From Catajapyx aquilonaris (Eukaryota), in the NCBI GenBank assembly GCA_000934665.2, contig KZ538094.1, positions 124,001 to 153,514 on the forward strand: a stretch of 29,514 nt of DNA, given 5' to 3'. Shown here one piece after another: positions 1-29,027 of the stretch. The notes under the pieces were generated by a model. The model saw only the letters and a program-made list of their open reading frames with translations. It did not search any database and had not been told where the DNA came from. The position numbers were made by a program, and so were the translations under genes. Numbering within the stretch: the stretch's first letter is position 1; every line of letters starts with the position of its first letter.

Positions 1-737
1 GATATCGACCTAGAATTTCTGCCACTCATATACGACATATTGCGAAAGTAAGTGGACAGAAATAGCACCTTGGGAAAGCATCCAGTAGAGGTGAACATTG
101 GCTTATTCTTGACCATTTTGCAGCATAGAGAAGGATCCTTCGGATAATTCGCACAAGAACCGGGACTTCCTCGAGGCCAGCCAGAAGACATTGGAGCTGC
201 AGAGGAAGTTGGAGCAGGCACGAGAGCAGGTATGTGCCAGTTTTGTTGGAATGATGAAATGGTTGCATGATATTGAGAGGGTTATCTGAAGGAGTGCAGT
301 TCATACCTATGTTCTAAATGGCAGTGGATGATGCTTCGTAAGGGTATTGGTACTGCCTGACTAACATGTAGTGAGCACTGGTAAAATGGCACTGTATCAC
401 ATCAGGGCAATCAAAATTGGTTAGTTCTACATTATCTTTGATCTATTACTGTGGATAACATGATTTGTGATGATGTTTTCCCTAATCGCACTAATGCAAG
501 AGGGTGAGCAGCATTATTGCTTGTAATTAAGATATGACCTAGATGTTATAGTGCAGCCCTAGTCTGATTGGTGCATGTTGCTGATAATTACAGGTGCAAA
601 AGCTGCCTGGGATTGAGTACAGCAGGGAGCGTCAGCTGAACAGGCTTGATAATTTGCGCAAGCAGCTGGTGGTGAAGCGAGAATTGCTGTTGAAGTACAA
701 GAACATGTGCAGCTTTGCTCTCCCCAAGCCCAATTAG
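1..737 (+). CDS. MED9: Mediator complex subunit 9 (5'-partial; exons <1-47, 124-229, 594-737)
   Basis: Manual splicing gives DIDLEFLPLIYDILRN|IEKDPSDNSHKNRDFLEASQKTLELQRKLEQAREQ|VQKLPGIEYSRERQLNRLDNLRKQLVVKRELLLKYKNMCSFALPKPN*. This matches the MED9 signature (FLPLIY..I...EKD; LPGI...Q...L..QL..K..LL.KYK). Donors GTAAGT (48) and GTATGT (230) and acceptors CAG (121-123, 591-593) give consistent phases. Stop TAG at 735-737. Absent from the ORF track. Confidence 0.93.
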
Positions 738-740
738 AGG

Positions 741-1001
741 ATGGTTCTACGCTTTGTCTTGCGCTACTTGTTGAACAACGAGCAGCTGATTGAGCGATTG
801 TCCCAGTCATACCCAATCAGACGAGCAGCGCAGTTGGTGTTCTACTTTTACTCTAAAGGACGATCTATTGGTGCTGAAGGAATCAGTAAGAGTGCTGAGG
901 AAAGCAATAGACAGATACAGGACATAGCATCTCGCTTCAAGGAAGAGCTGAAGAAGGGTGTTCAGGAATTCCATGAGGAGATGAAAAAGAAGTCAAAGTA
1001 G
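741..1001 (+). CDS. NCBP2AS2: NCBP2-AS2 family small protein (86 aa), intronless
   Basis: MVLRFVLRYLLNNEQLIERLSQSYPIRRAAQL matches the recalled N-terminal motif of human NCBP2AS2 (MVLRRLL...QLVERLSESRPIRRAAQL), and a C-terminal F.EEL..G motif is present. Good start context AGGATGG. Confidence 0.9.
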   Translation: MVLRFVLRYLLNNEQLIERLSQSYPIRRAAQLVFYFYSKGRSIGAEGISKSAEESNRQIQDIASRFKEELKKGVQEFHEEMKKKSK

Positions 1002-1003
1002 AC

Positions 1004-1684
1004 ATGGTGGGTCGCAACTCAATGGCCGTGATTTTTGTGGGCGATGAGGGCTACTCTATGCTGGATAATCCAAGGCTGCGCAAATCATGGCGGGGGATTC
1101 TTCGTGCACTTCTCCATGTGCCGATGGAAGATGTTCCAGGCCGCCTTCTTCTCTCGCTGGCCCCACCCGTGGTGAGGCTACGTTTTAAGAAGATTCATGT
1201 TGACTTGGTGGGCCCAATGATAGTCCTCATGTTGCTCGCCACGGTCCTTGCCTTTGGCCAGCTCACTTCTGGGAAGTGCAGGTCTCCCGTGACTGCTTTC
1301 GGAGGGGCGATCATTGTGGGCACGTCCTACCTGACCATTGCTCCCACTGTTGCTTTCGCTGTCTGCAGGCTGTGTAAAACTGCAATCAATTTCCCTCAGC
1401 TCATCTCGCTCTTTGGATATGGCCTGTTTGGTCATGTGCTAAGTCTAGCGTTGGGGCTGGTGTTCCGAGGCGAGGATGACCATGGGTCATTTTTTCTGTT
1501 CATGACCATTTTTGGTGGAGCTGCCACTGCCAGACTGGCTCTTGTGCTCCTGGCTCGAACACCAAAACCAGCTGCCAGACTTCTTTTGTGTGCTTCTGTA
1601 GCAGTAGCACACCTTCTCTTTCTCCTCCATTTGTACATCTCATGTTTGAGACGGACGGTCCGCAAATCGACGATGGAGGAGTAA
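1004..1684 (+). CDS. YIPF3: YIP1-family Golgi membrane protein, YIPF3-like (226 aa), intronless
   Basis: The motifs ILRALLHV..EDV..RLLLSLAP, DLVGPMIVLMLLATVL, QLISLFGYGLFGHVL, FGGAATARLALVLLART and RLLLCASVAVAHLLFLLHL are collinear with YIPF3 (ILRPYFDVEP..V..RLLES, ELYGPLMLV, LLGYGLFGH, GGLSTLRM..VL.SRT, RLLLC....LHMLFLLYL). About five hydrophobic segments. Confidence 0.88.
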   Translation: MVGRNSMAVIFVGDEGYSMLDNPRLRKSWRGILRALLHVPMEDVPGRLLLSLAPPVVRLRFKKIHVDLVGPMIVLMLLATVLAFGQLTSGKCRSPVTAFGGAIIVGTSYLTIAPTVAFAVCRLCKTAINFPQLISLFGYGLFGHVLSLALGLVFRGEDDHGSFFLFMTIFGGAATARLALVLLARTPKPAARLLLCASVAVAHLLFLLHLYISCLRRTVRKSTMEE

Positions 1685-2100
1685 CCTAGTCATCTTCCTC
1701 ACTTTATTCGCCGGTGTTTTGCAATGGCGGTCTGTAACAATGTTGTCATTCAGCGTGATGTGAGGGTGTTCCAATATGGTAGCGGTTGAAGACCTGAGTT
1801 CCCAAATTTTCTGAAGTTCTCTTGTGCTTGTGATAAGATTACAGCAAAATTTCACCCAAACATCCCTGCACATAATACCTAACAGACATGCCTTGATATG
1901 GTTCATGAAAATGAATTGTACACAGGTTTCTGTAGAATATTCTGGAACTCATGCCTTCAACAGGTGTTTATAAGTGTTACTAGGAAAATAAGTGTTGCCA
2001 TGTTATAGGAAGCAATAGGAGTATGTAAGTTGTTAAAATCATTTCACTGTCGAGGAATACATTTGTGCCTTATTTCAAAGGCGAGTTGGCAATACTCTAA

Positions 2101-2129
2101 CACACACATACACACACACACACACACAC
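2101..2129. repeat. (CA)n microsatellite
   Basis: Visible CA run with one interruption. Confidence 0.9.
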
Positions 2130-2195
2130 CCTTAGAAAGTGATAAGAGATTGCCACTTCACACCAGAGGGATTTTAAAAATTTAGCGGCTGTGGC

Positions 2196-2201
2196 AATAA
2201 A
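2196..2201 (+). terminator. Candidate polyadenylation signal for the MED9-NCBP2AS2-YIPF3 unit (alternative at 2641)
   Basis: First AATAAA I found downstream of MED9 exon 3; none seen between 594 and 1684. A second AATAAA lies at 2641-2646. Confidence 0.35.
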
Positions 2202-2985
2202 TTTATGTGGGTGCACCATTACATCACTGTCATAACTTGGAGCAGAGAACTGATTACCTCTTGTGTTGATCATGTATTTCTTATGATGCACCTTGTTGGC
2301 TCAATCTTAACCTGGTAATTCAAAACTTTTTCTACATCTTCTGTGTTGTGTTGTGGAATGATTTATGTATTGAGTAGATTACTTATTGTGTTGCTATGAA
2401 ATTTCATCCCAAATCACCAGCATAATTATGTTGTCATTCCCCTGATCTAATTAGATGATCTTGTTGAGATTCTGGATCCTTACTCCCAAAGTGTGATGAT
2501 GGAATTTTGGAGACATATCTTAACCTACAGATGCATTTGAGAAATTGTCATGAAGTCACTTCATAAGGTGTACTCACTGCAATTTGTTCTATTATAGATG
2601 TGAGGCAGTTATGCTTCCTTCAGTGTACTTTCTATGACGTAATAAACTGATTTCCAGGAGAATCGTATATCTTGAATTGGGGGAAAGAGCTGTCCCTAGT
2701 ATAATAACAATGTCTTGAGATACTGTAGCTATTTCACACCATGTGTTTCAATGCACTGCATCCAATATATGCACAAAAATTTTTGGTGGCAAGGGGCATG
2801 CAGCATGGAAGCATCTTAGTCCATGAATCCCACCTTGCAGTTTCCCTTGCTTTACTACACCTACTCCTTGCAACTTGGTGAACACTACAATTTCTCTAAA
2901 TTGTGCATCTACAGAGTACAGACACAGCGAAGGGGGTGAGGAGTGTGGACGTGTGGCCTAAATGGCAGACCCTGGACTGGATGCT

Positions 2986-3090
2986 CCAAGGGGTAAATCA
3001 CTCGTCAAGTCCGTTGTACGGTATAAGGCGCCAAGCTCAGCTTTTTACAAGTCCGTTGTACACTCACCTGCCGAGTGATTTACCCCTTGG
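2986..3090. mobile_element. Small foldback element/MITE
   Basis: Perfect 19-bp inverted repeat CCAAGGGGTAAATCACTCG (2986-3004 / 3072-3090) enclosing two copies of CAAGTCCGTTGTAC. No clear TSD. Confidence 0.6.
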
Positions 3091-3125
3091 GGTGCGCAAC
3101 ATGTGACCTGAAACAGCCTTTAGGG

Positions 3126-3379
3126 CAGCGCTTCCCAATTTCGTTCGTTGGTGACCCCAAAATAAGTATTGTAAAATATTTGTGACCCCCTATATGTGCC
3201 CATTTCGATCCGCCGACATGAAAAGACAGGTCAACAGTGAAATGACCTTACCATATGGTCATAATTTTCAAGAAATTTAGTATCATTTTGTGAAAATAAT
3301 TTGTAACCCTCCCTCGCGACCCCAAATTTTATTTTTGCGACCCCATTTGGGGTCGCGACGCACAGTTTGGGAAGCACTG
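3126..3379. mobile_element. hAT-type MITE (254 bp)
   Basis: TIRs CAGCGCTTCCCAA / TTGGGAAGCACTG, perfect 8-bp TSD CTTTAGGG (3118-3125, 3380-3387), internal GACCCC repeats. Confidence 0.9.
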
Positions 3380-3887
3380 CTTTAGGGGATCATCTTTATA
3401 TGCTAGGCTTGATTTAATCATATATCTCCTGGTGGATTCTGAGTAGTAGGAAATGGGAGACCACTGGAGAAAACTCATTGATGTTCTTTTTGCATGAGAA
3501 CATCCTTCACCTTCACCCAACTTGGGAATCAAACTCGTGGCCTCAAGAGTTTGCAATATGTTGCCTTCACTACTGATGCCTGAAAGTTACGCAATAATAC
3601 TGGAAGTGAGGGTGAAGGGAAATTCAAATGACAGTCTGATGCACATTACATTCACATTGTAAAGGCTTGTGGATTTGCCAGGATGTATTCAGACTTCTGA
3701 TTACAAACTAGACTAATGTATCTATGTATGCAAACACAAGCAAAAGTGAGGCTTGTGTGGGCACTGACATGACTCAACTGGTGAACTATTCCAGATGACA
3801 ATCTCCATAGCTGGTTCATGGGGAAAGTGCATTTACAGAGAGCCAAAAAGCTTGCAAAATGTGGTCACTATGACACATTTAGGTGAC

Positions 3888-4050
3888 GGGCCTATGTGAT
3901 GTAGTGGCTTCTGCTACAGCCTTGCACCTCTGAGGTCCCACTTTTAATCCCTAGGTCCAACAGATAATTTTCGCACATGTTTGCATAGGTTTTCTTGAGA
4001 TTCTCCTGCTTCCTCCCACACTCCATAAAAATCATCCCTCTCACCCTGTC
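3888..4050 (+). mobile_element. Degenerate tRNA-derived SINE with V/Meta-like central domain
   Basis: Decayed tRNA-like head followed by GTTTGCATAGGTTTTCTTGAGATTCTCCTGCTTCCTCCCACACTCC, which resembles the conserved SINE core GTGGGTTTCCTCCGGGTGCTCCGGTTTCCTCCCAC. Confidence 0.5.
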
Positions 4051-6028: not shown

Positions 6029-8943
6029 TCAGAGGAAGTAGAGGGTGTCGCTGAGGTGTTCGTGCACGTTGGAGTGGATGTACTCCCCGACGAGGTAGGC
6101 CAGCTTGTGGGCGTACTGGCAGGGGGCAGGGACACGGACGGTGCTGCTCCAGTTGAAATAGAGGTGGCACATCTTGTAGGTGAGGCGCTGGATCTTGTCA
6201 GGCCCCAGGTTCAAGGTGTCGTGGATGATGGAGTAGCTGGTGGGGGCCACCGTGCCCTGCCTGACAGACTGGGAGATGAGATAGAAGTCAAACCTCTCTG
6301 GAAGCGTGATGTCGTCGTCCACTATGGTCCCTGGAAAGGGGTTGCCTGCCTGGGCTGTCATGATCCTCGTGTTCAGCCTCTTGTTCACTATCACGAAGCC
6401 AAACTTGCACTCTTGCTCAGAGGGGCCGTACATCCTGCTCAGGGCTGCCAGGATCTGGGCCAGCTCGTTGTCGCGGACGTAGCCAACCTGAAACACCAAA
6501 CAGAAAGAAGTAAGCCTCTGTAACCTCAGAGAGACATGCAAAACTGGTGGTCAGCATATACTGTACCTGGCCTTCTCCAACGCCACTCCTGTATAAGATG
6601 ACATGGCTGGGTAGCCTTCCGTTGGCCTGCTTGTACTTCTGGAGGGCCTGGACCATGTTGTTGGAGATAAAGTTGGGGACTTCCTCTTGGTGCGAGTGGA
6701 TGGCCACTATGCTGCAGTAGCGGGTGAAGATGGTGTTCATGGAGGCCACCAGGGCTCCCACCGAGGTCCCCTTCTGGGCCGTGTTGTGGTAGACGTCGAA
6801 GCCCACCATCATGCAGTTCTTCAGGGGGATGTCTGCGGACCAGGGCTCCCCTCCCAGCTTGCAGTTGATCTGGATGGCAATCTTGGTGGCGATGGACACC
6901 AGGCCCTTAGAGGAGAGGGTCCGGGCCACCACCACCTGGGAGGCTATCCCCTGCTCCACGTAGCACCTCTTCTTGACCGCCCCGTACACGTCCTTCCTGT
7001 TGGTGGCCAGCACCACCATCACCATCTGGGGGTTGCACTGGACGCAGGCCTCGTCTATGGCCCTGATATAGTTCTGCGGCCTCACATCCGGAAGGAACTC
7101 CACCAGAGGGTAGGCCATGGGCATGCTCATCCCGGAGGCCGCGTCGTGCAAGGTCCTGAGGAAGGGGACCAGCTCTGCCGTGTTGCGGGCAGGGGCGATG
7201 ACGACCCAGTTGTGCAGGTTGACCACCTTGAGCATGGAGCTCCTCCTTAGGGTGCTGGTCCAGTCCGCCTGGATCCCTCCGTTGACCCTCCTGTCCTGTC
7301 CCAGCACGATGGTCTCTGGTTCCAGCTGGCGACCACTGAGCTTCATCAGGTGGTCTCCAAAGTCTAGATCCAGCTTGGCCAGCTCCTCCATGCAACGGGG
7401 CTCGCTGTGAATGCGGCTCATGAACCTCTGGAGAACCCGGACCTTCTTGTCCGGGGTCTGGTGGGTGTGCTGCCCCATGGCCCTCATCAGCTTGGAGTTC
7501 TCCCTCATGGACTGGTCCAGCCCCGTCATGAAGCACAGCTCGGGCACCAGGTAGACGCACTCCACCTCCCCCCTGTGGACGTCCTTCTTCCTCGGCCTGG
7601 ACACCAGCAGGGGCTGCCCCATCTCCGTCACCCTCTCGTTGTAGCGGCTGAAGTAATAGTCCACGTACGTGGTGGCCTTGTTGTCCCTCATCATGAACAT
7701 GTCCGCGGGGCACTTTTCCCAGTCGATGTCGTCAATTCTGTACGTCTTGGAGTTGTACTTGGTCATGACGATGGTCCCCAAGAGGGCCTCTGCCGCCAGC
7801 TTCTGGTAGTTGTTCCTGTCCCTGTTGTACAGGGTGTGCAGCTGCTTGAGGACCGTGTCCCTCCTGAGCACCTTGTGGTGGATCTCTGCGCAGAGCAAGA
7901 GCTGGTTCTCGTGCTGGCGGATGGAGGTCAGGTATCCGGGCCATATCTCCAGGTCGAACTCTGGTATGGAGATGGAGGCGTGCCGGTCGTAGTAGTGCCT
8001 CTGGACCATCTCCAGCTGGAGGTGGGACATGGTCTTCCGCAGGAGGATGTTGAACACCTGCAGGTACATGTGGTCCGAGGGCTTGACCTCCCCTACCAGG
8101 CGGACCTTCACCTTCACCTTGGCCTTGTCCATGGCCCTCTCCACCGTGGTCTCCAGCTTCCCTCCCTCCAGCCTGCGGGTCATGTACAGCATGCTGCTCC
8201 CGTCATAGATGAAGTGCCCTCCAATCACTTCCTCGAAGTTGTGCAGCAGCCCCTTCCGGATACCCACCCTGTCCTCGTCCGGCTCAAAGTCCACTCGGTA
8301 CTGGATCAGGGTCCATTCTGCCCTCTTGGTCACCTCGAAGTAGTTGGCGATCAGGTTGGTGGGTCTCCCAGCCGTCCCCTTCTTGGTGTTGGCCGCGCTC
8401 TCTGGCCTGGTGCACACCACTGTCTCCTCTCTCTGCTGGATGTCCCTGCTCCTGCGGGCCAGGGCTGATGACCGGCTCCCACCTCGACCCACCAGGACCT
8501 CCTCTCCAGGGGCATGAAGACCCTCATCTGCAACAAACAACAACATTTATTGTCTTGTTATAAATTATTCTGTCTCTAGCTGCAATGTCCAAAAGGGACT
8601 GACCTTCGGGAACATCATCTCCACCATTTCCCTTCTTGAGCTCCATCCTACGGAGTGATTCGGTGACTGCCTCCACTCCACCAGGGTTAATATGGTCCTT
8701 GGAGGGCACCAACAGTGACCTCCCCCTTCCCATGATGAAGCCAGGAGTCACGGTGTCCCGCTGCACACCACTGGATGGTACTGGAGCACCTCCTCCTCCA
8801 AGTGGTGGTGGGGGGCAAGCAGCACCAGCACCAGAAGCACCAGGCCGCCGTGAAGGACCCTCCTCCAAGAAGGGACGGCCCCTGCACCTGCCCCTGGCCC
8901 TGCCCAAGGCTCGAGCTGTCTCAGCGGGAGGGTTATTGTCCAT
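6029..8943 (-). CDS. piwi: PIWI-clade Argonaute (Piwi/Aubergine-like), about 919 aa; coding exons 8943-8604, 8527-6567, 6487-6029
   Basis: N-terminal GRARGRCRGR / GRGR repeats, PAZ (TKYNSKTYRIDDIDW...YVDYY...QPLLVS...LVPELC), MID (Y..VKK...SQ...KIAIQINCKLGG) and PIWI (VGFDVYH...HQEE...YRSGVGEGQ...FYLISQSVRQGTVAPTSY...CHLYFNW..TVRVPAPCQYAHKLA...LYFL*). Introns of 76 nt (GTCAGT..CAG) and 79 nt (GTACAG..CAG) keep the frame. A probable acceptor at 8962-8960 implies an upstream non-coding exon. piwi versus aub orthology is not resolved. Confidence 0.96.
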
Positions 8944-9849
8944 CGTGCTGCCAACCTTTCTGCAACATGATAAATGCAATTTGTCAACCAAGATGCTAAG
9001 CATTGGTGGAGGGAGACACTAGAACCATCCAAGTTGTCATAGTCAATGCAATTTTATCATAAAATCTGAACCCACCTATCTTCATGAAAATAATATTCAT
9101 TGCGCCTTTTGTCTGATGTGATTAATGTGCATAATCTGTATTGTGTTAATATATTTTATTTATTTTATTTCGTACCCCATTGGGCTGTACAAGCCTTTAG
9201 GGGGTATTGTGTTAATATAAAGAATGTGACACTCCACCTACATGCCTCAAATCAAAATAACAGACACATTTCCCGACAACCATTATATTGGCACTGTGAT
9301 TCCGAGTAAACAAACTGTTCCACAGTAGTCGGCGGGATAAACAAATTCTCCCCATTCCAGCAACTAATAACCCACAAGTCCTCCTCCCAATAAAAAAAAT
9401 GCCCCAAATTTCACAACACTCGCCCATTGAAATGCAGTGATGCAAAGCCTACTTCGAATACAAAACAAATCATATACCTTTCGTGAATAACTACAATGGA
9501 CGCTTGGCCTCCTCCAGACACTCTGATGTCGACCTCCCTCCTAGTGTAATTTGGGATGTCGTGGGCCAATAATTCCCCCCCCCCNCCCCCCCCCTCCCAC
9601 TCCCACCTTGGTTGAGAAACCAATGACAATGTAGCCAACCTCCATTGTTTGGAACACTCCCCCCGTTGCCAAGGGAGACCGTTGCAACGAACAGGATGGA
9701 TCAACAAACAATGGTTCCATTTTTGACAATGATGGCCACGACTCGTCTCCCTTTGTCACGTAGGAAACCTAACCAGGACCACACAATAGTCGACGACACC
9801 AGTCGGTCGGCCTGGCCCCGAAATAATTGGCATTAAATCATACGTCCAA

Positions 9850-12130: not shown

Positions 12131-12339
12131 GTAAAGTCGTTTCGTCAGAAAAAGGAGGGACTCACACAAACACGTCTCAATTTGAGTAACCATAGTAACC
12201 ACACCACGTATTACAAAAGTAGTTTTCATGCATCCCAGGAGCAACACAAACCCTCTTTCTTGATGGAAGACTGCCGTAAAATGGTTACCATGGTGGTCAA
12301 TATAGTTACTCAGAATTTGACGCGTGTATGACGAGCCAC

Positions 12340-13688
12340 AAATCCTCGTTTTCTGGTGGAACGACGCATCTACGGCGCTAAGTGTATTGGCAAACTTCTG
12401 GAGAGAAACGCAAATGTCAGCACGTCAGGAAAGGACAAGAACGCACCATTGCACGTGGCTGTGGAGAAAGACAACGAACCCATGGTGCAGCTCCTGGTGT
12501 CCTTCGGAGCTGATGTGAACGCCAAGAACAAGTTCGGACACACCAGTTTGCATCTGGCTGGACACTCTTCATCAATCGCTTTGAAGCTGATCTGGGCTGA
12601 AGGGAACGTCCACTCGCTGGACAAGTTCGGACGAACTCCGTTGCACCACGCCAAAGATATTGAGATGGTGTTGACGTTGGTCAGAAACGGAGCAGTAGTC
12701 AACGCAAAGGACGGTAAGAAGAGGACACCACTGCATCTGGCGGACAATGCAGAAGGGACGAAAGCACTGATTGAGTCCAAAGCGGACGTTGCTGCATGGG
12801 ACGACAATGGGAGGACACCACTGCATATCACCAAAAGTGACGGTAGCCTACTGTACTGTAAGCACACAGCTGAACTGCCAGAAATTGTTTCAAAATAATT
12901 TACAGGTGTGGCCAAGGTTCTGATTGTCAGCAGTGCAGACATCCACTCGTGTAACGACCGTGGAAGGATGCCTCTGGACATAGCAAGTCTGGAGGACACG
13001 ACTCCGTGGTCAGGTACCTGGTTCCAAACCGGTGCGGAGGGTCAACTGCAGAGATGGAGACAGATGCACTCCGCTGCATCTGGCTAAGAATAAGTCAACT
13101 GCAGAGATCCTAATTTGCAGAGGGGCTTCGGTCAACGCACAGGACAGAAAAAGTGCGACTCCTTTAATCCATGTGGTCATGTCCAACAATAAGGAGACTC
13201 GTCCACAGTACCTCCTCAGAGAAGGTGATCTGAGAGGTATCAAGTGTAGCGACAATGGAACCACCGCGATACACGAGGCGGTCGAGAACAAGGATGCCGA
13301 CATGCTGAGGATGCTCATGTCCCACGGAGGTACCAGTCTGATTCAGAATACCGGTTCACATGGCGGCCAAGTCCGGCGAGAATGCGTTGTTGCAGGGTCT
13401 TCTGAACAACAGACACAACAGCCAGTCGCTGAACATGGTCAACGAAATGGGGAGGGCACCTTTTCATCTGGTTGTTATGGGAGGACATCGAGACAGCTTC
13501 GAAACACTGGCTGATCGAGAGAGGTATACATGGTGAAAGACCATGAGGGAAACACACCACTGCATCTGGCATCAAAGAACAACCAGCTAGAGACTGTTCG
13601 GGATCTGCTCATTAGAGGTGTAAAGGACGTGCCAAACGATGACGGCTACACTGCTTTGCACTTAGCTGTACAGGCAGGACACCAGGTT
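12340..13688 (+). pseudogene. Disrupted ankyrin-repeat array (more than 10 repeats)
   Basis: Repeated ANK consensus (KNAPLHVAV, GADVNAKNKFGHTSLHLA, GRTPLHHA, KRTPLHLA, RCTPLHLA, GTTAIHEAV, GNTPLHLAS, GYTALHLAV) split over ORFs 12356-12898, 13032-13514 and 13530-13733 by stops and frameshifts. Confidence 0.85.
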
Positions 13689-17697: not shown

Positions 17698-18459
17698 GGC
17701 CGGAATCGTGGTGGCTCGCGTAAGCCTACAGGGGCATAAGTTGTGACGCTACTGCGCACGTACGAGGGTTGCTATCGCGCTGGAAAGTTATCAGAGGCGC
17801 AGAATTCAAACCATCCCATAAATCTAGGGGACGTCTCGAGTTCCCAAAGGAGTTATGGGAGGGTTGGCGCTCGGCTTTTCAGGCCCCTAGGGAGTTTTGG
17901 TGGGGCCGGGGTTTGCTTCAGGTTGGTGGGGGGGAGTGCCCGGGGGCGGCCTGAGGCTTGGGGGCCTCTTTGGATGTGCGTTCCGTCAGGTCGGATTTTT
18001 CATCACCTCCCAAAACCAAATGCAATGAAATCGTGTGGAGTGAGGACGGGGGCGGACCGTGGCTAGGGGCGGCCCCGGGGCCACTTTGAATGCGCGTTCT
18101 CAGTTCTGTAATGTCGGATTTATTATCACATCCCCAACCGAATGCAATGCAATGGTGTGGGGTGCACCCAGGGCAGGCCGATGGCCCAACCTTGCCCCCA
18201 CCTACACACCCCACACCCAACCCGCGTGAGAAGCATGTTCCGGGATTGGCTGTTAGAGCCCATTGCGTCACGGATGCCGACCGTTTACATGTACNGGGGG
18301 GGGGGGGGGGGGGGGGGGGGTGAGTCCAGCTGATTAAAGCGCCGATAAGGGACGTCACCAAGATGGACTTCTCCTTTAAATATATGGCCCATTTACTGGC
18401 CGCCATGATTACAGGTCACTTGCGTGACCACACATGTGGGAGCCACAGCTATTCCGGCC
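17698..18459. mobile_element. PIF/Harbinger-like non-autonomous element (about 760 bp, GC-rich)
   Basis: TIR GGCCGGAAT.{4}GTGGCTC at both ends, TTA TSD (17695-17697, 18460-18462), internal direct repeat of about 55 bp (near 17990 and 18113). Contains an N next to a poly-G run. Confidence 0.7.
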
Positions 18460-18943: not shown

Positions 18944-21900
18944 TCACAGCCCTGTGTACTGTGGTGAAGAACTGCTCCAACTGCTAGAATTGGATGATGA
19001 TGCAAACCTAGAAAATGGGTTGCGTGGGCTTGTCCTCCTCCTGTTAATACTACCATCCTTCGTATGTGCCACCTCCCTGCGAAGAAATCCATTTTCCAAT
19101 GTCAGAGGTGGGGAAAAAAAAAATGCTGCAGGGGCATTTATACCGTTAATAATAATTAAAGACATTCCAAATATGCATGCCATGTACTGCACCCACATTT
19201 TTGGCCTACTGTGCAATTTCAGGATTTCTTGTTATTATTAACATTGTAGATGTGACCCTTATGATAGTGATTGTGTCCGACTTATGATCTGGTTCATTGT
19301 GTTCATAAAGTCTGCCTCCTTCATGCTGGCAGAGGGGACATGGGTCTCACTATCAAAATCAAAGGCTAGAAAAACAAATTGTGAGCAGGTTGGTCGTCGA
19401 GGTGGTTTAGCCATCAACCACGTTTAAATATACTCTACAGAAACTTCTGACCTCTCATTTATACCATGTAATGAATTTTGATGCAAGCATTGTAATGCTG
19501 CTGGGCTTACCCAAAAAAGGGGAGACATGTGATAAGCAACTCCTTGCTGGGGTTGCTCACCAACTCGGAATTATTCTGAACTAGATGGTTCACAATGCAG
19601 CGGATATAGTGCTGTAACCTCTTGCGCCGCTCTTCCACAAATCGAGCGTCCTGCAGGTTAAAGTGTTCAACAGTTATATGATGTTGACTTCATGCACCAG
19701 CCTATAACAAGCAGCCAAGTGGCTCAGAATTCCTCACAAAGGCAGGTAAATTGGAACACCATGCATATTATTTTTCAAGGAGAAGCTCGCTGACTCAAGC
19801 AAAGTTGAGTCAATGATGAGGGTAATGTTGCATCGCATGAAATAATTATGGTAACTGTACCCATCATCTCTCTCTCTCTCTCCCTCTCTCCCCCTCCCTC
19901 TCTATATCTCTCTCTATGCATACTCTATCTGAGGTATGGTGTGTTGGTTGGTTGGGTTGTGTGGGAGCAAGTCAGGGCCCAAGACTGCAGTGACAGATGG
20001 GTAGAAATAGAATGGAGAAAATAGTTCCCTGCACATGAAAGGTGACAGTATTGAGCCAGATGGTCTGACTGAACAATGTCAGACATGATTCTAACCACAC
20101 TCTGAATGCTTTACGATGTAACAGGACCCAGAGTTTCACAATTCCTCTGTGTATATGCATCAACTGCTTTTGTTATATCAGTCATCATGTGCCCATACAT
20201 TAAGGTTTACCACACCCATGTTTACATACATTATGAATAGCAATTCAGGGGGGGTCAGGCTAGGAAGGGAAAAGGTGTGGGGGTTGATGTTTGCGGACGA
20301 TATGGTGGTGGTGGCAGAAGAAAGAGAACAGTTAAGTGTTATGGTGAAACAGATAGAAGCATATTTGAAGAAAAACGATTTAGAGTTGAATGCGGGAAAG
20401 ACGAAAATCATGGTATTTAGGAATGGAGGGAAAAGGTCCAAAAGGGACGGATGGTTTTGGAAAGGGGAAGAGATAGAAGTGGTCAACAAATACAAATACT
20501 TAGGATATTGGTTTACAACAAAGGGGGGGATACAGGAACATATCAAGGCACAAAGACAGAAGGCATGGAGAGGGTTGCACAGGGTCAGGAGGATATGCAG
20601 GCAACAAAAAATTGAACAGTGGGGTTTGGTGAAGGCATTATATGGAAGCATGGTGAGAACAATCATACTGCTGGGAGCCGAGGTGTGGGCGTGGAAGGTG
20701 GGACGAGCAATGGAGAGTGTGCAGTTGGGGTTCCTCAAGAGGTGGCTCGGAGTGGCCCAGAATACTCCGGGGTACATTGTGCTGACAGAGACAGGGATGA
20801 TGGAGGTGGAAGTGGCGGCATTAGAAAGGGCAGTTAGGTGGATCATGAAGATGGAAAGGTTAGGGGAAGACAGACTGTTGCGAAGGATATGGGATGAGAT
20901 GAAGAAGGAAAGGGAGGGAGGTAGTAAAAATGGCTGGTGGGAAGACGTGAGGAAGAAGGAACAAGAATGGGAGGTGGAGCATGATGAGGAGTGGCAAAGG
21001 CAAACTTGGGAAGAACGATGGGACTCGTGGGGGAAGGAACTGAGGGAGAGGATGATCAAGGAGAGGGAGGAGAGAATTGCCAACACGACCAACTGGCCCG
21101 ACTACAGATCTGTAAAGATAGAGAGAGAAGAAGACCGATATTTGGACAGAGAGAACATAAAATTTCTGAAGGTGTTGGCGAAACTAAGATGTGGGACACT
21201 GTGCAGGGCTAGCTGGTCGTGGCTGTCAGAAACGGAGAGGAACTGTTTATTGTGTGATGAGGGGGAGGAGAATATGGGGCATATTGTGAGGGATTGTAGG
21301 GTAATGAAGGAGGAGAGGAGGAAATGGATACCGGCGGTGGAGGAGATGGAGGACGAGGAGGTGTATAGCTTTGTAAAGAATGTAAGAAAAAGGGGTGCGC
21401 TGTGTAAGTATTTGTATGGTGTGGTGAAAAAGAGGAGGGATGCAATTTTGGAGAGACAGGGGGAGGGAGTGAGAGAAAATGGAATTATGTAAAAAAATGT
21501 AAATGTAGAATGTAGAATGTCGATAAATGTAAATGTAATCATGTGAGGAAGGAGGAGGGTCGGCCAAGCGGCATTAGCTGCAGGCCGACAGACTAAATAA
21601 AGCACAAAACAAACAAACAAAAACACACCCATGTTTTCATCCCATCTATAAATGTACCCTTATCATTAATAGCAATGATGTTAGTGGAGTATTATCACTT
21701 CTAAATGAAGGTAGCAGGTACTTCACCTTACCTTATTTCCAATAGTTTTCTTTGGCGGGAAATCAAATGTGTTGACCACTGGATCTTTCTTCTTCAGTTC
21801 TTTGTGCAGTGAATAAAATTGCGAATATCGCCTATAGACATTCCATTCATCGTCACGTATCCTCACAAAGACCTGCAGAATTACACAAAGTTACGAAGCG

Positions 21901-24900
21901 TAGTGGATATTTCATGTAAAGATTCTGCTCACTTGGTACACGTGGTGCACATCAGAGGAGCCTCCAGTCAAAAATGCAGATGGTATCCACAGGTTAATGA
22001 GGGCTCTGGTGGATATGGCTAGTGAACTTGTGTCGTAGTCACTGGTTACACTGACAGCATCATCATCTGATGTTTGGCCTTCGTCTGGCAGAGGCCCTCG
22101 AAGATCCACTAGTTCCTCACGAAGACGACGCAGGGCACCATCCTTTGCTTGTAGAAGACGCTGCAGCCTCTCATTAAATTCCATCAATTCACCGTGCATC
22201 TCGGCCACCTGTATCAGCTTCTTCTCATACTCAGTGGCTTCATAGTGGTAGTCAATGAATGCACCATCTCCATGCCTGTTAGCTTGCTCTAAGGATGCCA
22301 AAGTTTCATGTGCCTGACTTCCATCCCGGCGGAGCATTTGCACTGCACCCACATACTTCCTCAACTGATGCTTCAAAAGTTCGTTTTCCCTGCAGTGCAA
22401 CACAAGGATACATTTTAGATATTTTTTCCCATGAAAATTGTGTGTAAATATGGCCTAGTGTTGTGCAACTGCAAAGAAAGAAATCACTGATTCTGTCAGA
22501 TTGTGTACAGTGGCGGAAATTAATGTCTGCCCCTGGCAGAGATTATTCTTTGCTTCATCTGGCACCCCATGGCGCAGCACCAGTTCAAACAGGCAAAAGT
22601 CCAGATAAGACAGCTGCTGCTGGATTAATGACAATTATTGCGGTCGTACATTTGAACAAGTACATGGATGTTGAGTCTGCCAATTATTATTAATATAGAT
22701 AATGCCTCGTTGTAAGGGTGTTTAGGAGATTGTTTAAAACCTCTCTAAATGTCACTTTATTCATCACGTCACTTCTTCATTGAGAACAAAATTACCTAAT
22801 GATGGGGAAGAAGTTGGGTGAGTGGGTGAGGATAATTGCTAGGCACTAAATCCCGGTTCTAAGAAGGGTTATCAAACGATTCTCACTGGAATTGTTGCGG
22901 CAGAGTTTCAGTGCGAAAGGCAGTCGTGAGCGAGAATTGTCGTGCAAGAAAAACACCCCAAGAACGCAACATACCACAACGTTTCTTTTGAATGGCCAGC
23001 CTCAACTTCTGTAATGCCTCACAATAAACCTTTGGGTTGAAAAAATGTAGTGGCATGTTGAGTTCTGTGGTGTTTTTCTTGTGCAACAATTCTTGCCCCC
23101 CACTGCCTTTCGCACTGAAACTCTGCCACAACAATTCAAGTGAGAATTGTTCAATCACCCTTCTTAGGCTATTTTCACAAGAGGCTGCCATGGCAGCATT
23201 GCCAAGGCAGCGCTGCCAGGTCTTTGCATTGCTGTAAGTGGAGCCTTTCACACGTGGTGGTTGGCAGCGTTTCTTCTATTACTTGCCCAACACCAGTGAA
23301 GTTCGCCTAGCACGAAAATCACCTGCATGTCGATGTTACAAATATGAATTACTTGAGAATGAATCATGTTTTAATCGCACAACTTATATGCTAATGAGCC
23401 TCATGGAAGAGCAATGTTGGGGCGAGATATCAATGCATTTGTCAGTGGAACAAGAAGAATAGGACAGAATTTATTTAGCGCGCCAGGGGCAATGGAGTTC
23501 GCCCAGAGCGCTAAACGCGCCACAAAGTTCGCCCACTGTTAAATACAGACTTTTACGGTGCCAGATGAAAAAAAAGTGCAGGTCTTTTGCCCTGCACCAT
23601 AATGCCATTACTCATTGCACTTGGTGTCTGAAAATAACAATCACAGGAGGTGGTAAGCCCATTCCTCCAGAGGTACACAAGGTGAAATGGAAGAGCTCTG
23701 AAGAAGGAAAGTCTGCTTATGTGGTTGCTCAAGAAGGGCATGTGCCATGCTCAATGGCTAGGGGCATCACATGAAGTAACAAAACTACAAGAATCATTCA
23801 GAAAAACCTTATTATGGACGTCACCAGGCAACAGCAGCAAGGAAAAACCGAGAGATGAGAAAAATGTGTCGCAATATCAGCGAAAGGAGCAGCGACCATC
23901 AATTTCAAAATGGTCAGATGAGACCCAAAAGGTGGTCCACACAACCTGTCGACTCTGCATCCATGACATGAAGTTGAACTTTTATGTGTAACTTCTCAAA
24001 GACTAACGGGGAATTCATGAAATCAGGACCTGCCCTCTAGACAATAGGCCAAGAAGAAACCACCCTTAAAGAGTTAAAGGTACTGGAACAGGAAAAAGAC
24101 TTGCTTGGGAGAAGGGATGGAAGCATTGGGCACATCAGATGTGGTATAGTCATGTTTCACGATGAATGAGTCAGTACAGGGACATCCATAATCGAGTACT
24201 GCAAACAAAGAAGAGGCGTGCCATCCCAATGTCTCACTAGAACCGTCAAACATGCACACAGCATTATGGTGCGGGGATGCATGGGTAGTGTTGGCCTTGG
24301 AAACTTTCCCAGCATCAATGGCACCATCGATACAAGCATGTTTCAGGAGATTTTGAGAGTCCATCCGCTGTGTGCGTCCTCAACAGCAACCTTACATCCG
24401 AATATCAACGCAATATTTCAACAGGACTTTGCATCTGACCAAAACAGCAGAAGCAAGTGGCTGGCAGACAAGGGGATTGACATTTTACGTGGCCATCGAG
24501 CAGCCTGGACCTCAATCCGATTGAGACAGACTGGAAAATCATGAAGAAGGTACTTTAGAGGAATCATCTTTGCACCAAGGCATCCCTTGAGGGCCAAACT
24601 ACGGGAGGTTCGGGACACCATCACTCCAGCCGAGTGCCAGAGCTCATTCAACACATGTCGTGTTGTGTGGAGGCCGTCATTGCTGCCCATGGCGATGCCA
24701 CCTGCTTCTAGGCAAACTTTGTGGCGCGTTTAGCGCTCTGGGCGAACTTCATTGCCCCTGGCGCACTAAATAAATACTGTCCTATTCATCTTGTTCCACT
24801 GACAAATGCATTGATATCTCGCCCCAACATTGCTCTTCCATGAGTCTCATTAGCATATAAGTTGTGCGATTAAAACATGATTCATTCTCAAGTAATTCGT

Positions 24901-27620
24901 ATTTGTAACATCGACATCCAGGTGATTTTCGTGCTAGGCGAACTTCACTGGTGTTGGGCAAGTACAATGATTCTTATCATTGTAAGTAGAAAATAACTCA
25001 TTTGCAATATGTCACTATTTACAAAGCAACTTATTCTGCACCTGTTGAGCCCTTGTAGTTTGGCATCTGCCCTCTCTAATCTCTCTTGGTCCTTACTCCT
25101 CATGTCTTCCACTTCTCGCCTAGCTCGTGCATTAGCTTCTGCTTCATGATTTAACATGGTACGCAATGTTTGGTTCTGCTGTGCCAAATCTTCCTTCTGG
25201 GATAAGACTGTCAGCAATGCCTGCTTCAAATCACCTGTGAATATCACACAATGAGTTGGCATTCCCAATATTGCGATCAAGAAACCAACCTGCACTCAAG
25301 TTTACAGTCTCAAGCTTCTCCACCCTCTGATTTGTACTCTGCTCTGAAGTAGGAAGGGCAGATGATTGTGACTGAAGAACTCTTTGTACTACTGCTAGTG
25401 CGGAAGCTGCAGTGTCCATTTCCTGTAATCAAATGCATGAGTTATGTAGAAGCCAAGATGAACAACAATCATTAAAATACAAGGGTCAGTCAAATGAACA
25501 TGGTACAGTTAATCAGATGTGGACATGGCTGTTAATAAATCAAGGAACAAGGAAGGAAGGAACAAATTCTTCCCCTGTATTACTGCACCAGTTCTACACA
25601 CCTATTAAGAATTCCTACATCACACAGCACACACCTATGGCTCAAGCCTGCCAAGTACCACCCAATTCTGCTTCAGCTGTGTTCATAATCTACATCAGCT
25701 AACAATTGAGTCTCACCTCTGAGTAACTTGGCACAGAAATGGAATCCTCTTCCGATTGTGGTTCCTCACTCCCTAAGGGAAGAGGAATGAGTTCACCCAC
25801 ATGTGCATTGTTCACTGGAGTGAGTGTCTGAGCTGAGCTGAGATTCCCATCATCAGATCTGGAAGACAATGCAAAATGCAACTTGGCTCCCAGACTACAT
25901 GCAGTCAGTTTTACCCATCTGCTGCTGAAACCGACTGGTTCAGAGCATCCCCCGTGATAGATGACACACTGCAACTCTGAGATTCATTGTTCGGCACTGG
26001 TTCCAAGCTTGCTTCCTTCCTCGCCATCTCACTGGGGGGCTCCACATTTATAGATTCAAGCAGGAGTTGTACACCACTTAGAACTTCCTTCATGCCTTCG
26101 GTTTCCTTTTCAAGTCCATTTCTGGCCTCCTCTGATTTGGCTTCTGTTGCTTTAACATTCCAGGAGCACACTTGATTGGCCTCACTTGTTACGGCAGTGG
26201 GGGAATTGAGGCATGTGGCTGGAGCACTGCTACACACTGGACTCTGGGTCTTACTGCAGCTTGAGCCATCATCATCAAAAGAAACCACATGGGGAAGCAC
26301 TTTGCGTTTCTTCTTCTTCTCCTTTATGGGCTTGGCTGAAAATACATATACAGTAGTATAACACAACTTGCACAAAGTGCAGATCCTTAATGAGTTGTAC
26401 AAAGAGTGTTCAAAAGATCCAGAAAAAAATGCAAGTCGCCTGTTCAGCATTACTTCGCACTTCCCACATCTAGTAATCAGGCATTTGACAATTCAAGTTT
26501 TCTTTTGTTGTTATTGATGGCATACTTCCCTCCCTGCGTTTGGAGGCAGGGAGGAAAATAAATATAATAATAATAATATATTATTATTGATGGCATACTG
26601 ATGAGATTATGTACACTTATGGAAAAAATAGCCTTGTACCCCAGCAAGAAGCAGCCAGGCAAGTGGACACGGGTGGAAGCATGCGTGCATGCATGCTTCC
26701 ACCTGCTTGCTTTGCCGCTTGGCACTGCTTGTGGAGATACACAAGGCTATTTTTTCAGTAGTGCACATAGATTGATCATGTGAAGACGAAAATTGTATCA
26801 TAAAATTGTTAAAAACCAGCCATTTGGGATGCTGCTCCATAGGGACAGTTACCTGGGCATCATAGATATGGCCCTCTCTTGCTCCAAAAGCCATGCAAAT
26901 TTGTGAATAAAACCAATATAAGACTTTTAAACATACAGTATGTTTAACTACGACTCCTGTGAATATCAGAAAACATGGATTTTTTGGGGCACCCCTGATA
27001 CATGAATCCTGTACAAATGGCACATGACTACAGTAACAAAAAATGTAAAGTCACGGTAGCCGGAGTCTTTCCTCCTGTTTCTTTTTACCTTTCATGGGTT
27101 TCACAAATCACAGGCATTTTAAAAAGTGAATAGTACTCCTTTTACATATCTGGTAAGTAGTAACCAAATCCAATTATTAATGAAAAATTGTAATATATAT
27201 GTACAGTAGGTTAGCTGATATTCAAGTAAACTTCTTGTTAGGATGACCTACTTGAGGATGGAGGAACTGGAGGAGGATCACTTTCCATCTGCCAGCTGGA
27301 AGCCAGCAGTTCCGAGGAATCGCCTTTGAGCAAATGGGTTTGGTTGAGATCAGGATTATTAATGCTGATGGCAAAAAGAATGGATCCTAGACCTGCGAAG
27401 CAAAATATGACATGTCAGTGCTAAGCATAATTATGTAGACTGGTTAACATCAGGTATCAATATCAGGCAGAAGAAAAACACATTGAATAAGTGAAACAGC
27501 ACACAAGCATGCCTGACCTTCAGTCAATAATATGGTAAGTAAGCCAAGATCATATTGCAAGGTTATTGCAATGTCATTAAATGTGCCCTACCTGGCAGGT
27601 TATTATTATTATTATTATTA

Positions 27621-27688
<68 letters not shown>

Positions 27689-29027
27689 AACAAGAAAGTA
27701 TGCTGTCAAATTACATTTGATCTTCGTACCAGCAATAAACCAGACTAAGTGATGGATTAATGCACAGTGATTGGAAAACCATCTGGCAGAACTTCACAAC
27801 AGCAACCCAAAATGCCCTTGTGATTGCATGCATGTTCACCAAGTTCTTACCAGCAGTCATCATAACACATTCCATATGCATGGTGTTTCAAGTATGCAAG
27901 TATGAAGGTCGCTTTATTATAGGAAATTTTGCTTCAAACTGTTATTTTTAGCAGCTTTTTGCACCCCAATCAAGATGCCCAACAAGGTACACAAAAATAA
28001 CTACTTCAGGCAATATTAGCAATATCTAAAAATGACCTTGACATTTGGAACACCTTGTATGTCAATGACAAGACTAAAACCACACCCATATAAAAAGTTA
28101 CAAGATTGTGACTAATTTTGTGTCGACTTTCTCACAGTAAGAACCAGGCCTTTAAAATTGTAATACTTTTAGAAACCCTGTCAAATCACAATTAAAAGTA
28201 ATAAGCACTAATGGATGGTTAAAATTACTGCTAACTCACATATTACATAACATGCCCTAGCAGGCAGGCATGATCATATTACAGGTGCACAATAAAATGT
28301 GAATTCTCACTGTGAATTGCCCACTTCCTTACTGCTCTATTCTCAACATCAAGGACATGAGAGTACAATTTTAAATCACACCTGCAGCCATAACTGGAAG
28401 CATGCTACTCCTCTCTTGATCCATCAGGAATGCCCAATCTTCATAAAACTGAGACAATGTGTTGGGATCAGCTACTAGCATATGCATGTAGCGCTCCAAG
28501 GAATGCTCATTTAATGCGGAACGAAGCCATGCTCTTCCTCTCCCAATATCGGTACTAATGTTGTTCAGCAACAAGTACCTCTCATACTCATGCCTTGTCA
28601 AGTGTTCCCTCACATAGTGCCAGAACACTGAAACAAGATAAGAAATTTTAAGAAATCTTTCACATAAAATCTAACACAACAACCAACCTGGAAATTCCAT
28701 ATTCGGCCCCAAATTTAAATTGAGGCTGTTGGACACAATTTCGGTAACCTGCCTGCAATGGGGAAAAAATATGAATGAACAACATGTAAAGGGCACATTT
28801 TTACATGTAAAACAATGATTACCTAAAAGCAGCCATGCCCCTGTTTGTACTTCTAGGACGCAACCCATGTTGCAGTACTACCTCGAACTGATGGCAGAGA
28901 TGACTGACACGATGATCAGTCTCAGTCGCAAGTTCTTTTCGCCCACCAAATCGGATCTGGCATTGTTTCACTGCATCAAGTAGATTGCCTAGCTGTGCCT
29001 GGCGTTGTTGTATGTACACGTCATCAT
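18944..29027 (-). CDS. SNX29: Sorting nexin-29 (RUN, coiled coil, PX), 5'-partial; exons 29027-28823, 28752-28688, 28627-28382, 27392-27252, 26335-25915, 25858-25717, 25422-25290, 25234-25042, 22389-21933, 21872-21732, 19650-19511, 19076-18944
   Basis: LLDAVKQCQIRFGGRKELAT, RUN core GRGRAWLRSALNEHSLERY...FYEDWAFLMDQERSSMLPVMAAGLGSILFAI, RENELLKHQLRKYVGAVQML, YEKKLIQVAEMHGELMEFNERL, and PX (INLWIPSAFL...HHVYQVFVRIRDDEWNVYRRYSQF...FPPKKTIGNKDARFVEERR). All junctions are GT-AG with consistent phase, about 805 codons in total. Start exon not found in the window; last exon (...PQYTGL*) is less certain. Confidence 0.95.
19867..19916. repeat. (TC)n-rich microsatellite
   Basis: Visible imperfect TC run in an SNX29 intron. 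Confidence 0.85.
20224..21623 (+). mobile_element. 5'-truncated non-LTR retrotransposon (LINE), 1.4 kb, antisense within an SNX29 intron
   Basis: 13-bp TSD CACACCCATGTTT (20211-20223, 21624-21636). Uninterrupted frame with RT motifs LMFADD, LELNAGKTKIM, YKYLGY, TPGYIVLTETG and C-terminal CLLC..E...H...C, stop at 21492. The 3' UTR has a stem-loop (GTCGGCC...GGCCGAC), AATAAA and a (CAAA)n tail. Confidence 0.95.
22750..23045 (-). mobile_element. mariner transposase relic
   Basis: YCEALQKLRLAIQKKRCGML..GV.L, then decayed HDNA..HTA and FD.P....DLVPSNY equivalents of the mariner YSPDLAPSD motif, with stops and frameshifts. Confidence 0.75.
23282..24962 (+). mobile_element. Tc1-family transposon with 252-bp TIRs (IR/DR type) and decayed transposase
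   Basis: TA on both sides. TIRs 23282-23533 and 24711-24962, each with three AGTTCGCC-type direct repeats. Internal RTVKHAHSIMVRGCM..G.G, IFQQD and WPSSSLDLNPIETDW (DD34E-type motifs) broken by frameshifts. Confidence 0.93.
26527..26583 (+). mobile_element. Tiny retroelement 3'-end insertion
   Basis: 16-bp direct repeat TTATTGATGGCATACT (26511-26526, 26584-26599) flanks the stem-loop CCTCCCTGC...GCAGGGAGG, AATAAA and a (TAA)n tail. Confidence 0.7.
26614..26763. mobile_element. Palindromic MITE with CACT...AGTG ends (CACTA-like)
   Basis: Outer arms GAAAAAATAGCCTTGT / ACAAGGCTATTTTTTC and a central 32-bp palindrome GGTGGAAGCATGCGTGCATGCATGCTTCCACC (26672-26703, one mismatch). Confidence 0.65.
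27600..27686. repeat. (TTA)n microsatellite
   Basis: About 28 units with one interruption, in an SNX29 intron. Confidence 0.95.

Follow-up and report, generated by a model that had tools for sequence, protein, structure and literature searches.

A MED9 locus of Catajapyx aquilonaris that is probably transcribed as a tricistronic mRNA with a microprotein and a YIPF3-like protein

Here, we present an analysis of a 29,514-nt stretch of the genome of Catajapyx aquilonaris (positions 124,001 to 153,514 of contig KZ538094.1, GenBank assembly GCA_000934665.2), referred to as the window, the numbering of which is used throughout. The window opens within an arthropod MED9 gene and covers its 3' part. 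Our data suggest that the mature, spliced, and polyadenylated mRNA of this gene is probably tricistronic, with MED9 (∼108 aa) being followed after 3 nt by an 86-aa NCBP2AS2-like microprotein (open reading frame 2 [ORF2]) and, after a further 2 nt, by a 226-aa YIPF3-like five-pass membrane protein (ORF3). All three ORFs are conserved protein-coding genes. The proposal is based on a spliced contig that joins all three ORFs and reaches a poly(A) signal, and on the recurrence of the same gene order in other species. Because this order is found on the distant metagenome contig L001, and because all three proteins are recorded on 1945-nt contigs in a close relative, the arrangement is not a matter of chance.

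Structure and transcription of the MED9 locus

The MED9/ORF2/ORF3 unit lies entirely on the plus strand. The first MED9 coding exon in the window (1 to 47) is truncated by the window edge, and ∼10 MED9 codons and the 5' untranslated region (UTR) lie upstream. A 76-nt intron (48 to 123) separates this exon from a second coding exon (124 to 229), which on its own matches the Pfam Med9 profile only weakly (E value of 0.015, 15.8 bits), and a 364-nt intron (230 to 593) precedes the last exon (594 to 2661); both introns have GT..AG borders. The last exon contains the C-terminal coding part of MED9 (594 to 737, with the stop codon TAG at 735 to 737), the 3-nt spacer AGG (738 to 740), ORF2 (741 to 1001, with ATG at 741 and TAG at 999 to 1001), the 2-nt spacer AC (1002 to 1003), ORF3 (1004 to 1684, with ATG at 1004), and a 977-nt 3' UTR (1685 to 2661) that includes a (CA)n run at ∼2097 to 2130. 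The frame of ORF2 is that of MED9, and ORF3 is shifted to −1 with respect to ORF2. The start codon of ORF2 has an A at −3 and a G at +4, and that of ORF3 has a G at both positions. Within positions 1 to 3000, AATAAA occurs at 2196 and 2641 only, and ATTAAA, AGTAAA, and TATAAA do not occur. The first AATAAA (2196 to 2201) is 3' of all three ORFs and may serve as an alternative poly(A) signal; the second (2641 to 2646) is likely the one in use. Because no poly(A) hexamer precedes 2196, ORF2 and ORF3 must be part of every MED9 mRNA.

Five sequencing runs contain the stretch, none of them listed as RNA; four belong to the sample that may be the source of the window, and the fifth, X5, is from a separate study and contained 0.76 of the sampled words. 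Over positions 1 to 4000, we compared contigs from X5 with those from X1 and X3, which are whole-genome DNA runs of the same organism. A single X5 contig (record 17; 2326 nt) aligns to 1 to 47, 124 to 226, and 591 to 2661, perfectly over 2221 nt and, in the last of these blocks, with no other letters and no gaps. Its two joints, 47 to 124 and 229 to 594 (the latter recorded as 226 to 591 and moved by +3), both fall on GT..AG borders, and neither is found in any contig of X1 or X3. The depth of X5 is 0 in bins 269 to 536, within the second intron, and in bins 2681 to 2948, where the DNA runs are flat at ∼20 to 24. Record 17 reaches 105 nt upstream of position 1, and this length fits ten more codons and ∼75 nt of 5' UTR because MED9 of a close relative has 108 aa, compared with 98 aa encoded in the window. 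At the other end, the contig reads past the AATAAA at 2196, spans all three ORFs, and stops at 2661, 15 nt beyond the AATAAA at 2641 to 2646. A mature tricistronic mRNA with a 3' UTR of 977 nt would be expected to look like this. No X5 contig has a loose end at 738 or 1002, which is weak evidence since contigs drop rare forms. A processed transcript spanning all coding sequences (CDSs), as polycistronic transcripts are understood in FlyBase (SO:0000690), is represented at the contig level only, by record 17 and by L001.

An initial annotation, made from the letters of the window, had placed ORF2 and ORF3 in the last MED9 exon behind spacers of 3 and 2 nt, had seen no AATAAA before 2196, and had proposed a single transcript. 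The spacers are exact, the hexamer scan agrees, and the spliced X5 contig confirms the borders of the exon (594 to 2661) in which both ORFs lie. The single transcript is supported at the contig level, in that record 17 joins the three ORFs with both MED9 introns removed and reaches the poly(A) signal.

Identity and conservation of the three proteins

MED9 is a subunit of the middle module of Mediator. Positions 594 to 734 match the Pfam profile PF07544 (Med9) over profile positions 42 to 80 of 80, with an E value of 4e-10 and 40.1 bits compared with a cutoff of 26.9. When the 47-aa piece encoded by the last exon was searched among longer proteins, 28 of 33 candidates had an E value of ≤0.01, and 22 of these 28 are named by their source, mostly as MED9 or Mediator subunit 9. 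The best named match is a MED9-like protein of Limulus, with an identity of 78% over the last exon and of 63% over 95 aligned residues. For P0137, the MED9 of the close relative, which is an unbroken 108-aa ORF, the corresponding values are 87% over the last exon and 83% over 98 residues. Judged by sequence similarity, the identification of MED9 is firm.

ORF2 belongs to a family of small proteins. All 11 candidate homologs (11/11) are supported at an E value of ≤0.001; they are 58 to 145 aa in size, and a Strigamia protein is 52% identical to ORF2. In all 13 aligned sequences, ten columns are invariant (M1, R4, S23, Y24, I26, R27, R28, A29, A30, and Q31), among them the N-terminal motif S-Y-x-I-R-R-A-A-Q. 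ORF2 of the window thus has the features by which we delimit the family, i.e., conservation, a size of ∼60 to 100 aa, and the invariant N-terminal motif. In the Atlas, ORF2 of the window is placed at rank 2 with the chordate cluster "protein NCBP2AS2" (score of 0.91, 206 of 256 features shared), and ORF2 of L001 at rank 3 with the same cluster (score of 0.92, 205 of 256 features shared); these placements rest on language-model features and are a lead rather than an alignment. Human NCBP2AS2 presumably shares the N-terminal motif. None of the 13 family members has a credible match in Pfam, a search of the PDB with ORF2 gave no relative (best E value of 0.071), and scans for the family in contigs of prokaryotic genomes and in viral contigs gave 18 and 8 pattern matches, respectively, of which none was confirmed. 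We suggest that ORF2 is a member of a conserved microprotein family for which NCBP2AS2, the nearest named cluster, provides a lead.

An exhaustive phmmer search with ORF3 identified 93 relatives at an E value of ≤0.001, 50 of them at ≤1e-10, whereas a word-indexed search found one. We looked up 20 clusters of relatives, of which ten are named, nine as YIPF3, YIPF3-like, or YIPF. The YIPF3-type names come from Cephus, Panulirus, Schistocerca, Ignelater, Allacma, Octopus, Biomphalaria, reptiles, and Xenia; the E values are 1.4e-29 for Cephus YIPF3-like, 2.9e-28 for the cluster with Panulirus YIPF3-like, 7.8e-24 for Octopus YIPF3, 8e-18 for snake YIPF3, and 1.4e-17 for Biomphalaria YIPF3. Proteins of the Yip1 family have a five-pass topology, and Kyte-Doolittle analysis of ORF3 gave five hydrophobic segments (residues 63 to 90, 102 to 121, 133 to 154, 163 to 184, and 189 to 216). 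Like vertebrate and mollusc YIPF3, with which it shares these five segments, ORF3 aligns over residues ∼31 to 218 with the Octopus, Biomphalaria, and snake proteins. However, it has only 226 aa, as its arthropod relatives have 200 to 250 aa, compared with 340 to 380 aa in mollusc, vertebrate, and cnidarian YIPF3, and it is without most of the long N-terminal part. In addition, ORF3 sits in a separate, fast-evolving arthropod clade. In a quick maximum-likelihood tree of 81 rows, from which 15 of 96 sequences had been dropped for being shorter than 180 aa, a clade of 34 rows (SH-aLRT of 99) separates from a clade of 47 rows. The former includes all five named arthropod rows along with ORF3 of the window, P0001 of the close relative, and the protein from L001, while the latter includes the named molluscs, the snake, and the cnidarian. 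The assignment of ORF3 to a short arthropod form of YIPF3-like proteins of the Yip1 family is firm as far as comparison of sequences goes. Among the names given in the initial annotation, MED9 and YIPF3-like therefore hold; NCBP2AS2-like draws on the Atlas features and the presumed motif only.

The three genes occur together beyond the window. In the close relative, P0137 (MED9), P0002 (ORF2-like, 77% identical to the window protein), and P0001 (YIPF3-like, 86% identical) are each recorded on one 1945-nt contig, and because the recorded sizes are equal, we infer that the three genes lie on one intron-free contig. L001, a 1390-nt contig of arthropod type, was found by searching a metagenome collection with the single protein P0132. 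It encodes a 106-aa MED9 (23 to 343), an 83-aa ORF2-like protein (363 to 614), and a 216-aa YIPF3-like protein (626 to 1276), separated by spacers of 19 and 11 nt. Over the aligned parts, these proteins are 46%, 48%, and 37% identical, respectively, to those of the window. L001 differs from the window in its stop codons (TAA and TGA), in its spacers, and in that MED9 and ORF2 are in different frames; the gene order and the tight packing are kept across this large divergence within the arthropod YIPF3-like clade. In addition, 1414-nt Logan contigs are on record for the ORF2 protein of L001 and for P0027, which represents the cluster of its YIPF3-like protein. Beyond 1945 and 1414 nt, no contig sizes are shared among the homologs of ORF2, ORF3, and MED9, in lists that are sparse and uninformative on other species. 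As to the 5' end of L001, the leader (1 to 22) contains two 6-codon upstream ORFs with ATGs at 6 and 16, and five ATGs are clustered at 23 to 47, after which 317 nt are free of ATG up to the ORF2 start.

Translation of the downstream cistrons and alternative origins of the proteins

If the mRNA is tricistronic, then one capped molecule would yield all three proteins, and cistrons 2 and 3 would be reached by termination-reinitiation. We favor this mechanism because the spacers are only 2 to 19 nt long and the upstream ORFs are short (∼108 and 86 codons), and because, in the window and in L001 alike, both downstream start codons are flanked by a purine at −3 and a G at +4. Leaky scanning may contribute in addition, because the upstream cistrons are AUG-poor and the out-of-frame AUGs in them start ORFs of just 3 codons; in the window, there is one non-start ATG in the 297 nt of MED9 and there are two in the 261 nt of ORF2, compared with 17 in the 681 nt of ORF3. 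In L001, the cistrons do not differ in ATG density. RNA structure at the two junctions is not more stable than in shuffled sequences (z scores of +0.36 and −1.59 in the window and +0.85 and −0.01 in L001), and we rejected an internal ribosome entry site or a reinitiation hairpin at the junctions on this ground. We also dismissed the pentamer TGGGA at ∼608 to 612 as a reinitiation motif of the calicivirus type, since it is only 5 nt long, lies 130 nt upstream, and has no counterpart before ORF3.

Several observations weigh against one mRNA that encodes three proteins or against parts of this proposal. The library type of X5 is recorded as "?", and its origin from RNA is deduced from the missing introns; moreover, contigs built from short words that span two genes do not establish that one molecule was present, that it was capped or tailed, or that minor isoforms are lacking. 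The contig of the close relative is known to us from its recorded size only. ORF3 matches the Pfam profile PF04893 (Yip1) with an E value of 0.0018 and 18.6 bits, below the cutoff of 28.6, over residues 62 to 208 and profile positions 15 to 170 of 173, and one of the ten named clusters of its relatives (P0023) bears unrelated automatic names from JGI, among them "tryptophan-rich sensory protein". With respect to leaky scanning, the depletion of upstream AUGs is nonsignificant by codon shuffling (P values of 0.13 for MED9 and 0.92 for ORF2 in the window and of 0.41 and 0.47 in L001), and scanning past ORF2 to ORF3 would be hard because the start context of ORF2 is strong. Finally, according to FlyBase, CG42518, the partner of MED9 in Drosophila melanogaster, has an alternative monocistronic splice variant in which the 5' CDS is disrupted, and like isoforms may exist here.

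This last point bears on the serious rival, according to which shorter isoforms feed ORF2 and ORF3. The MED9 mRNA would then carry both ORFs as untranslated 3' UTR, and the downstream proteins would come from transcripts started at an internal promoter, e.g., in intron 2, or produced by alternative splicing that eliminates or interrupts the MED9 CDS. We consider this unlikely. According to Crosby et al. 2015 (PMC4528330), only 45 of 159 fly dicistronic loci seem to be exclusively dicistronic, and overlapping isoforms are inseparable by contig. At the first junction, a pyrimidine-rich run precedes the AG at 736 to 737; ORF3, in contrast, has no preceding pyrimidine tract. The spacers of 2 to 19 nt are kept in three species and are too short for a promoter or UTR to fit between the cistrons, and all three ORFs are present on L001 and on its 1414-nt Logan counterpart. 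The only joints of X5 in the region are those of the two MED9 introns, which again counts for little because rare forms are dropped from contigs.

The other alternatives are far less probable than separate transcripts. Recoding would produce fusion proteins, with read-through of the MED9 TAG giving MED9-ORF2 and a shift to the −1 frame late in ORF2 giving ORF2-ORF3. The window has the layout for this, in that MED9 and ORF2 share a frame with only TAG AGG between them and a G-AAA-AAG run lies at 983 to 989; also, L001 agrees with the window in placing ORF3 in the −1 frame of ORF2. However, the MED9 and ORF2 frames differ in L001, its stop codons are TAA and TGA instead of TAG, and its ORF3 frame becomes open just 13 nt ahead of the ORF2 stop codon, where a slippery run is lacking. 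Given also that ORF2 and ORF3 both begin with Met-Val, which is conserved and lies in a favorable start context, that their homologs are free-standing proteins of 58 to 145 and 200 to 250 aa, respectively, and that neither junction bears a stable structure, recoding is highly improbable. To a similar degree, we doubt a trans-spliced operon, in which addition of a spliced leader at the AG of each TAG stop codon would give three monocistronic mRNAs. Both stop codons do end in AG, 3 and 2 nt ahead of the next ATG, and spliced leaders are in use in some crustacean groups. Nevertheless, the TAG stop codons are not kept in L001, the upstream cistrons have no poly(A) hexamer (neither AATAAA nor ATTAAA in 1 to 2195), the sequence before 1001 is purine-rich and has no pyrimidine tract, and an intron-free contig still joins the three ORFs. 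Moreover, the best named match of MED9 is from Limulus, and to our knowledge, spliced leaders have not been described in chelicerates. The least probable explanation, which can nearly be dismissed, is that the intron-free contig stems from an assembly artefact or a processed retrocopy. The unrecorded library type of X5 would allow for it, but the joined form is present in none of the contigs of X1 and X3, X5 lacks depth over intron 2 and past 2680 while matching perfectly over 2221 nt, and the same order is found on independent contigs of other species.

Neighboring features and known polycistronic loci

Elsewhere in the window, positions 2949 to 3484 are a high-copy repeat, over which the summed depth of the DNA runs rises from ∼24 to 700 to 6800 with many variant joints and loose ends. 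On the minus strand, 6029 to 8546 contain an intron-poor gene of the Piwi/Argonaute type with a GC content of 57 to 60% compared with ∼43% in the flanks, which may be a retroposed Piwi copy. A 709-aa ORF encodes ArgoN, PAZ, and the first half of the Piwi domain (profile positions 2 to 168), and an overlapping 173-aa ORF in another frame encodes the second half (profile positions 165 to 302). Because the two halves of the domain lie in two overlapping frames, there is likely a frameshift or a very small intron near 6420 to 6550. Two open frames with ankyrin repeats on the plus strand (12332 to 13514; Ank_2, E values of 4.7e-35 and 2.7e-13) are likely exons of one ankyrin-repeat gene. A 456-aa open frame on the plus strand (20122 to 21492) with the end of a reverse-transcriptase domain (RVT_1, E value of 1.3e-9), situated in a region of very strong GC skew (+0.33 to +0.46), is probably a truncated non-LTR retroelement. 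On the minus strand, 28374 to 28670 are an exon encoding a RUN domain (E value of 6.1e-20), and three frames without a Pfam match on the same strand (21915 to 22454, 24948 to 25295, and 25914 to 26492) may be further exons of this gene. The translations of two minus-strand frames at ∼9411 to 9755 and 17918 to 18415 contain X, indicating at least two ambiguous bases, beside low-complexity runs rich in Gly or Pro.

Polycistronic mRNAs are an accepted minority class in arthropods, the mechanism of which is unexplained. In D. melanogaster, 159 dicistronic pairs, seven tricistronic loci, and two tetracistronic loci are described by Crosby et al. 2015 (PMC4528330), where ∼2.5% of the protein-coding genes are counted as polycistronic by FlyBase, the distance from stop to start ranges from an overlap to >1 kb, and small proteins are over-represented. 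According to File S1 of that paper, MED9 is "di/polycistronic only" with CG42518 (2R:18167227..18168380, 28 nt from stop to start), and in Table 3 of PMC4978919, one P-element insertion is named for both genes. We suggest that CG42518 is probably the NCBP2AS2-like microprotein, because the 1154-bp locus is too small for a YIPF3-like CDS beside MED9 and because CG42518 is not flagged as being <60 aa. In this estimate, we take fly MED9 to have ∼144 aa. A Drosophila MED9 dicistron had been mentioned in the initial annotation, with an NCBP2AS2 homolog as the second cistron; FlyBase bears out the dicistron, with CG42518 at 28 nt, and the size of the locus suggests that the partner may be this homolog. 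The Drosophila pair and the unit in the window are alike in that MED9 is the 5' cistron, without a monocistronic form in the fly annotation, and is followed after a short spacer by a partner that is unrelated in sequence. They differ in that the fly locus has two annotated cistrons, while the window and L001 add a YIPF3-like third one, and in that the spacers in the window are 3 and 2 nt instead of 28 nt.

The unit is probably old within the arthropods, and the annotated MED9-CG42518 dicistron would be its two-cistron form. The initial annotation had proposed that an old bicistron gained a third cistron; a tricistronic ancestor with a loss in flies is at least as likely, because the trio is shared by two members of the arthropod YIPF3-like clade that have diverged very far. 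In a bolder version, which we put forward tentatively and regard as doubtful, the trio would date back hundreds of millions of years, to the ancestor of the arthropods, the arthropod-specific shortening of YIPF3 from 340 to 380 aa to ∼226 aa would have occurred at its capture as a downstream cistron, all three proteins would come solely from this mRNA via obligate termination-reinitiation over spacers of 2 to 19 nt, and the Drosophila dicistron would be a reduced remnant. If this were the case, a Mediator subunit would be tied in dosage to a microprotein and to a Golgi membrane protein. In any event, the trio offers a clean natural substrate for studying how a eukaryotic ribosome translates a second and a third ORF 2 to 3 nt after a stop codon. 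It also calls for caution in annotation: pipelines that allow one CDS per mRNA would drop the microprotein and would miss the YIPF3-like gene or give it a spurious long 5' UTR.

A full-text literature search, for which subscription journals, gene pages, and most supplements were out of reach, returned no description of a MED9-NCBP2AS2-YIPF3 or a MED9-YIPF3 transcript, and the main text of a paper on small ORFs in Tribolium (PMC13670568) does not mention MED9, NCBP2, YIPF, Mediator, bicistronic, or tricistronic. Nonetheless, the arrangement is less exceptional than the initial annotation had implied, considering the seven tricistronic and two tetracistronic loci in FlyBase and spacers there down to 1 to 2 nt or overlaps. 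Thus, the tetracistronic locus CG42381/CG42379/CG42380/CG9865 and the pairs Rad1/CG34314 and tectonic/CG42730 resemble the unit described here in combining two to four unrelated CDSs with spacers of 1 to 22 nt or a 1-nt overlap. These loci are curated within Drosophila, whereas the new aspect here is that one trio is conserved across very divergent arthropods.

With regard to mechanism, the stoned and Snapin dicistronic mRNAs of Drosophila offer a parallel; in the model proposed for them (Wall et al. 2005, as cited in PMC4528330), the second cistron would be translated by continued or resumed scanning. The upstream cistrons in the window are AUG-poor as well; however, there are three cistrons instead of two, the depletion in the window is nonsignificant by codon shuffling, and it is missing from the overall densities in L001. 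Outside the animals, green algae have capped and polyadenylated mRNAs that encode two, three, or more unrelated proteins (PMC7896298); these are similar in kind and come from a different kingdom. Altogether, we conclude that the MED9/ORF2/ORF3 unit is not a new category but a newly found, deeply conserved case of the already known arthropod polycistronic mRNAs, which extends the annotated Drosophila dicistron.

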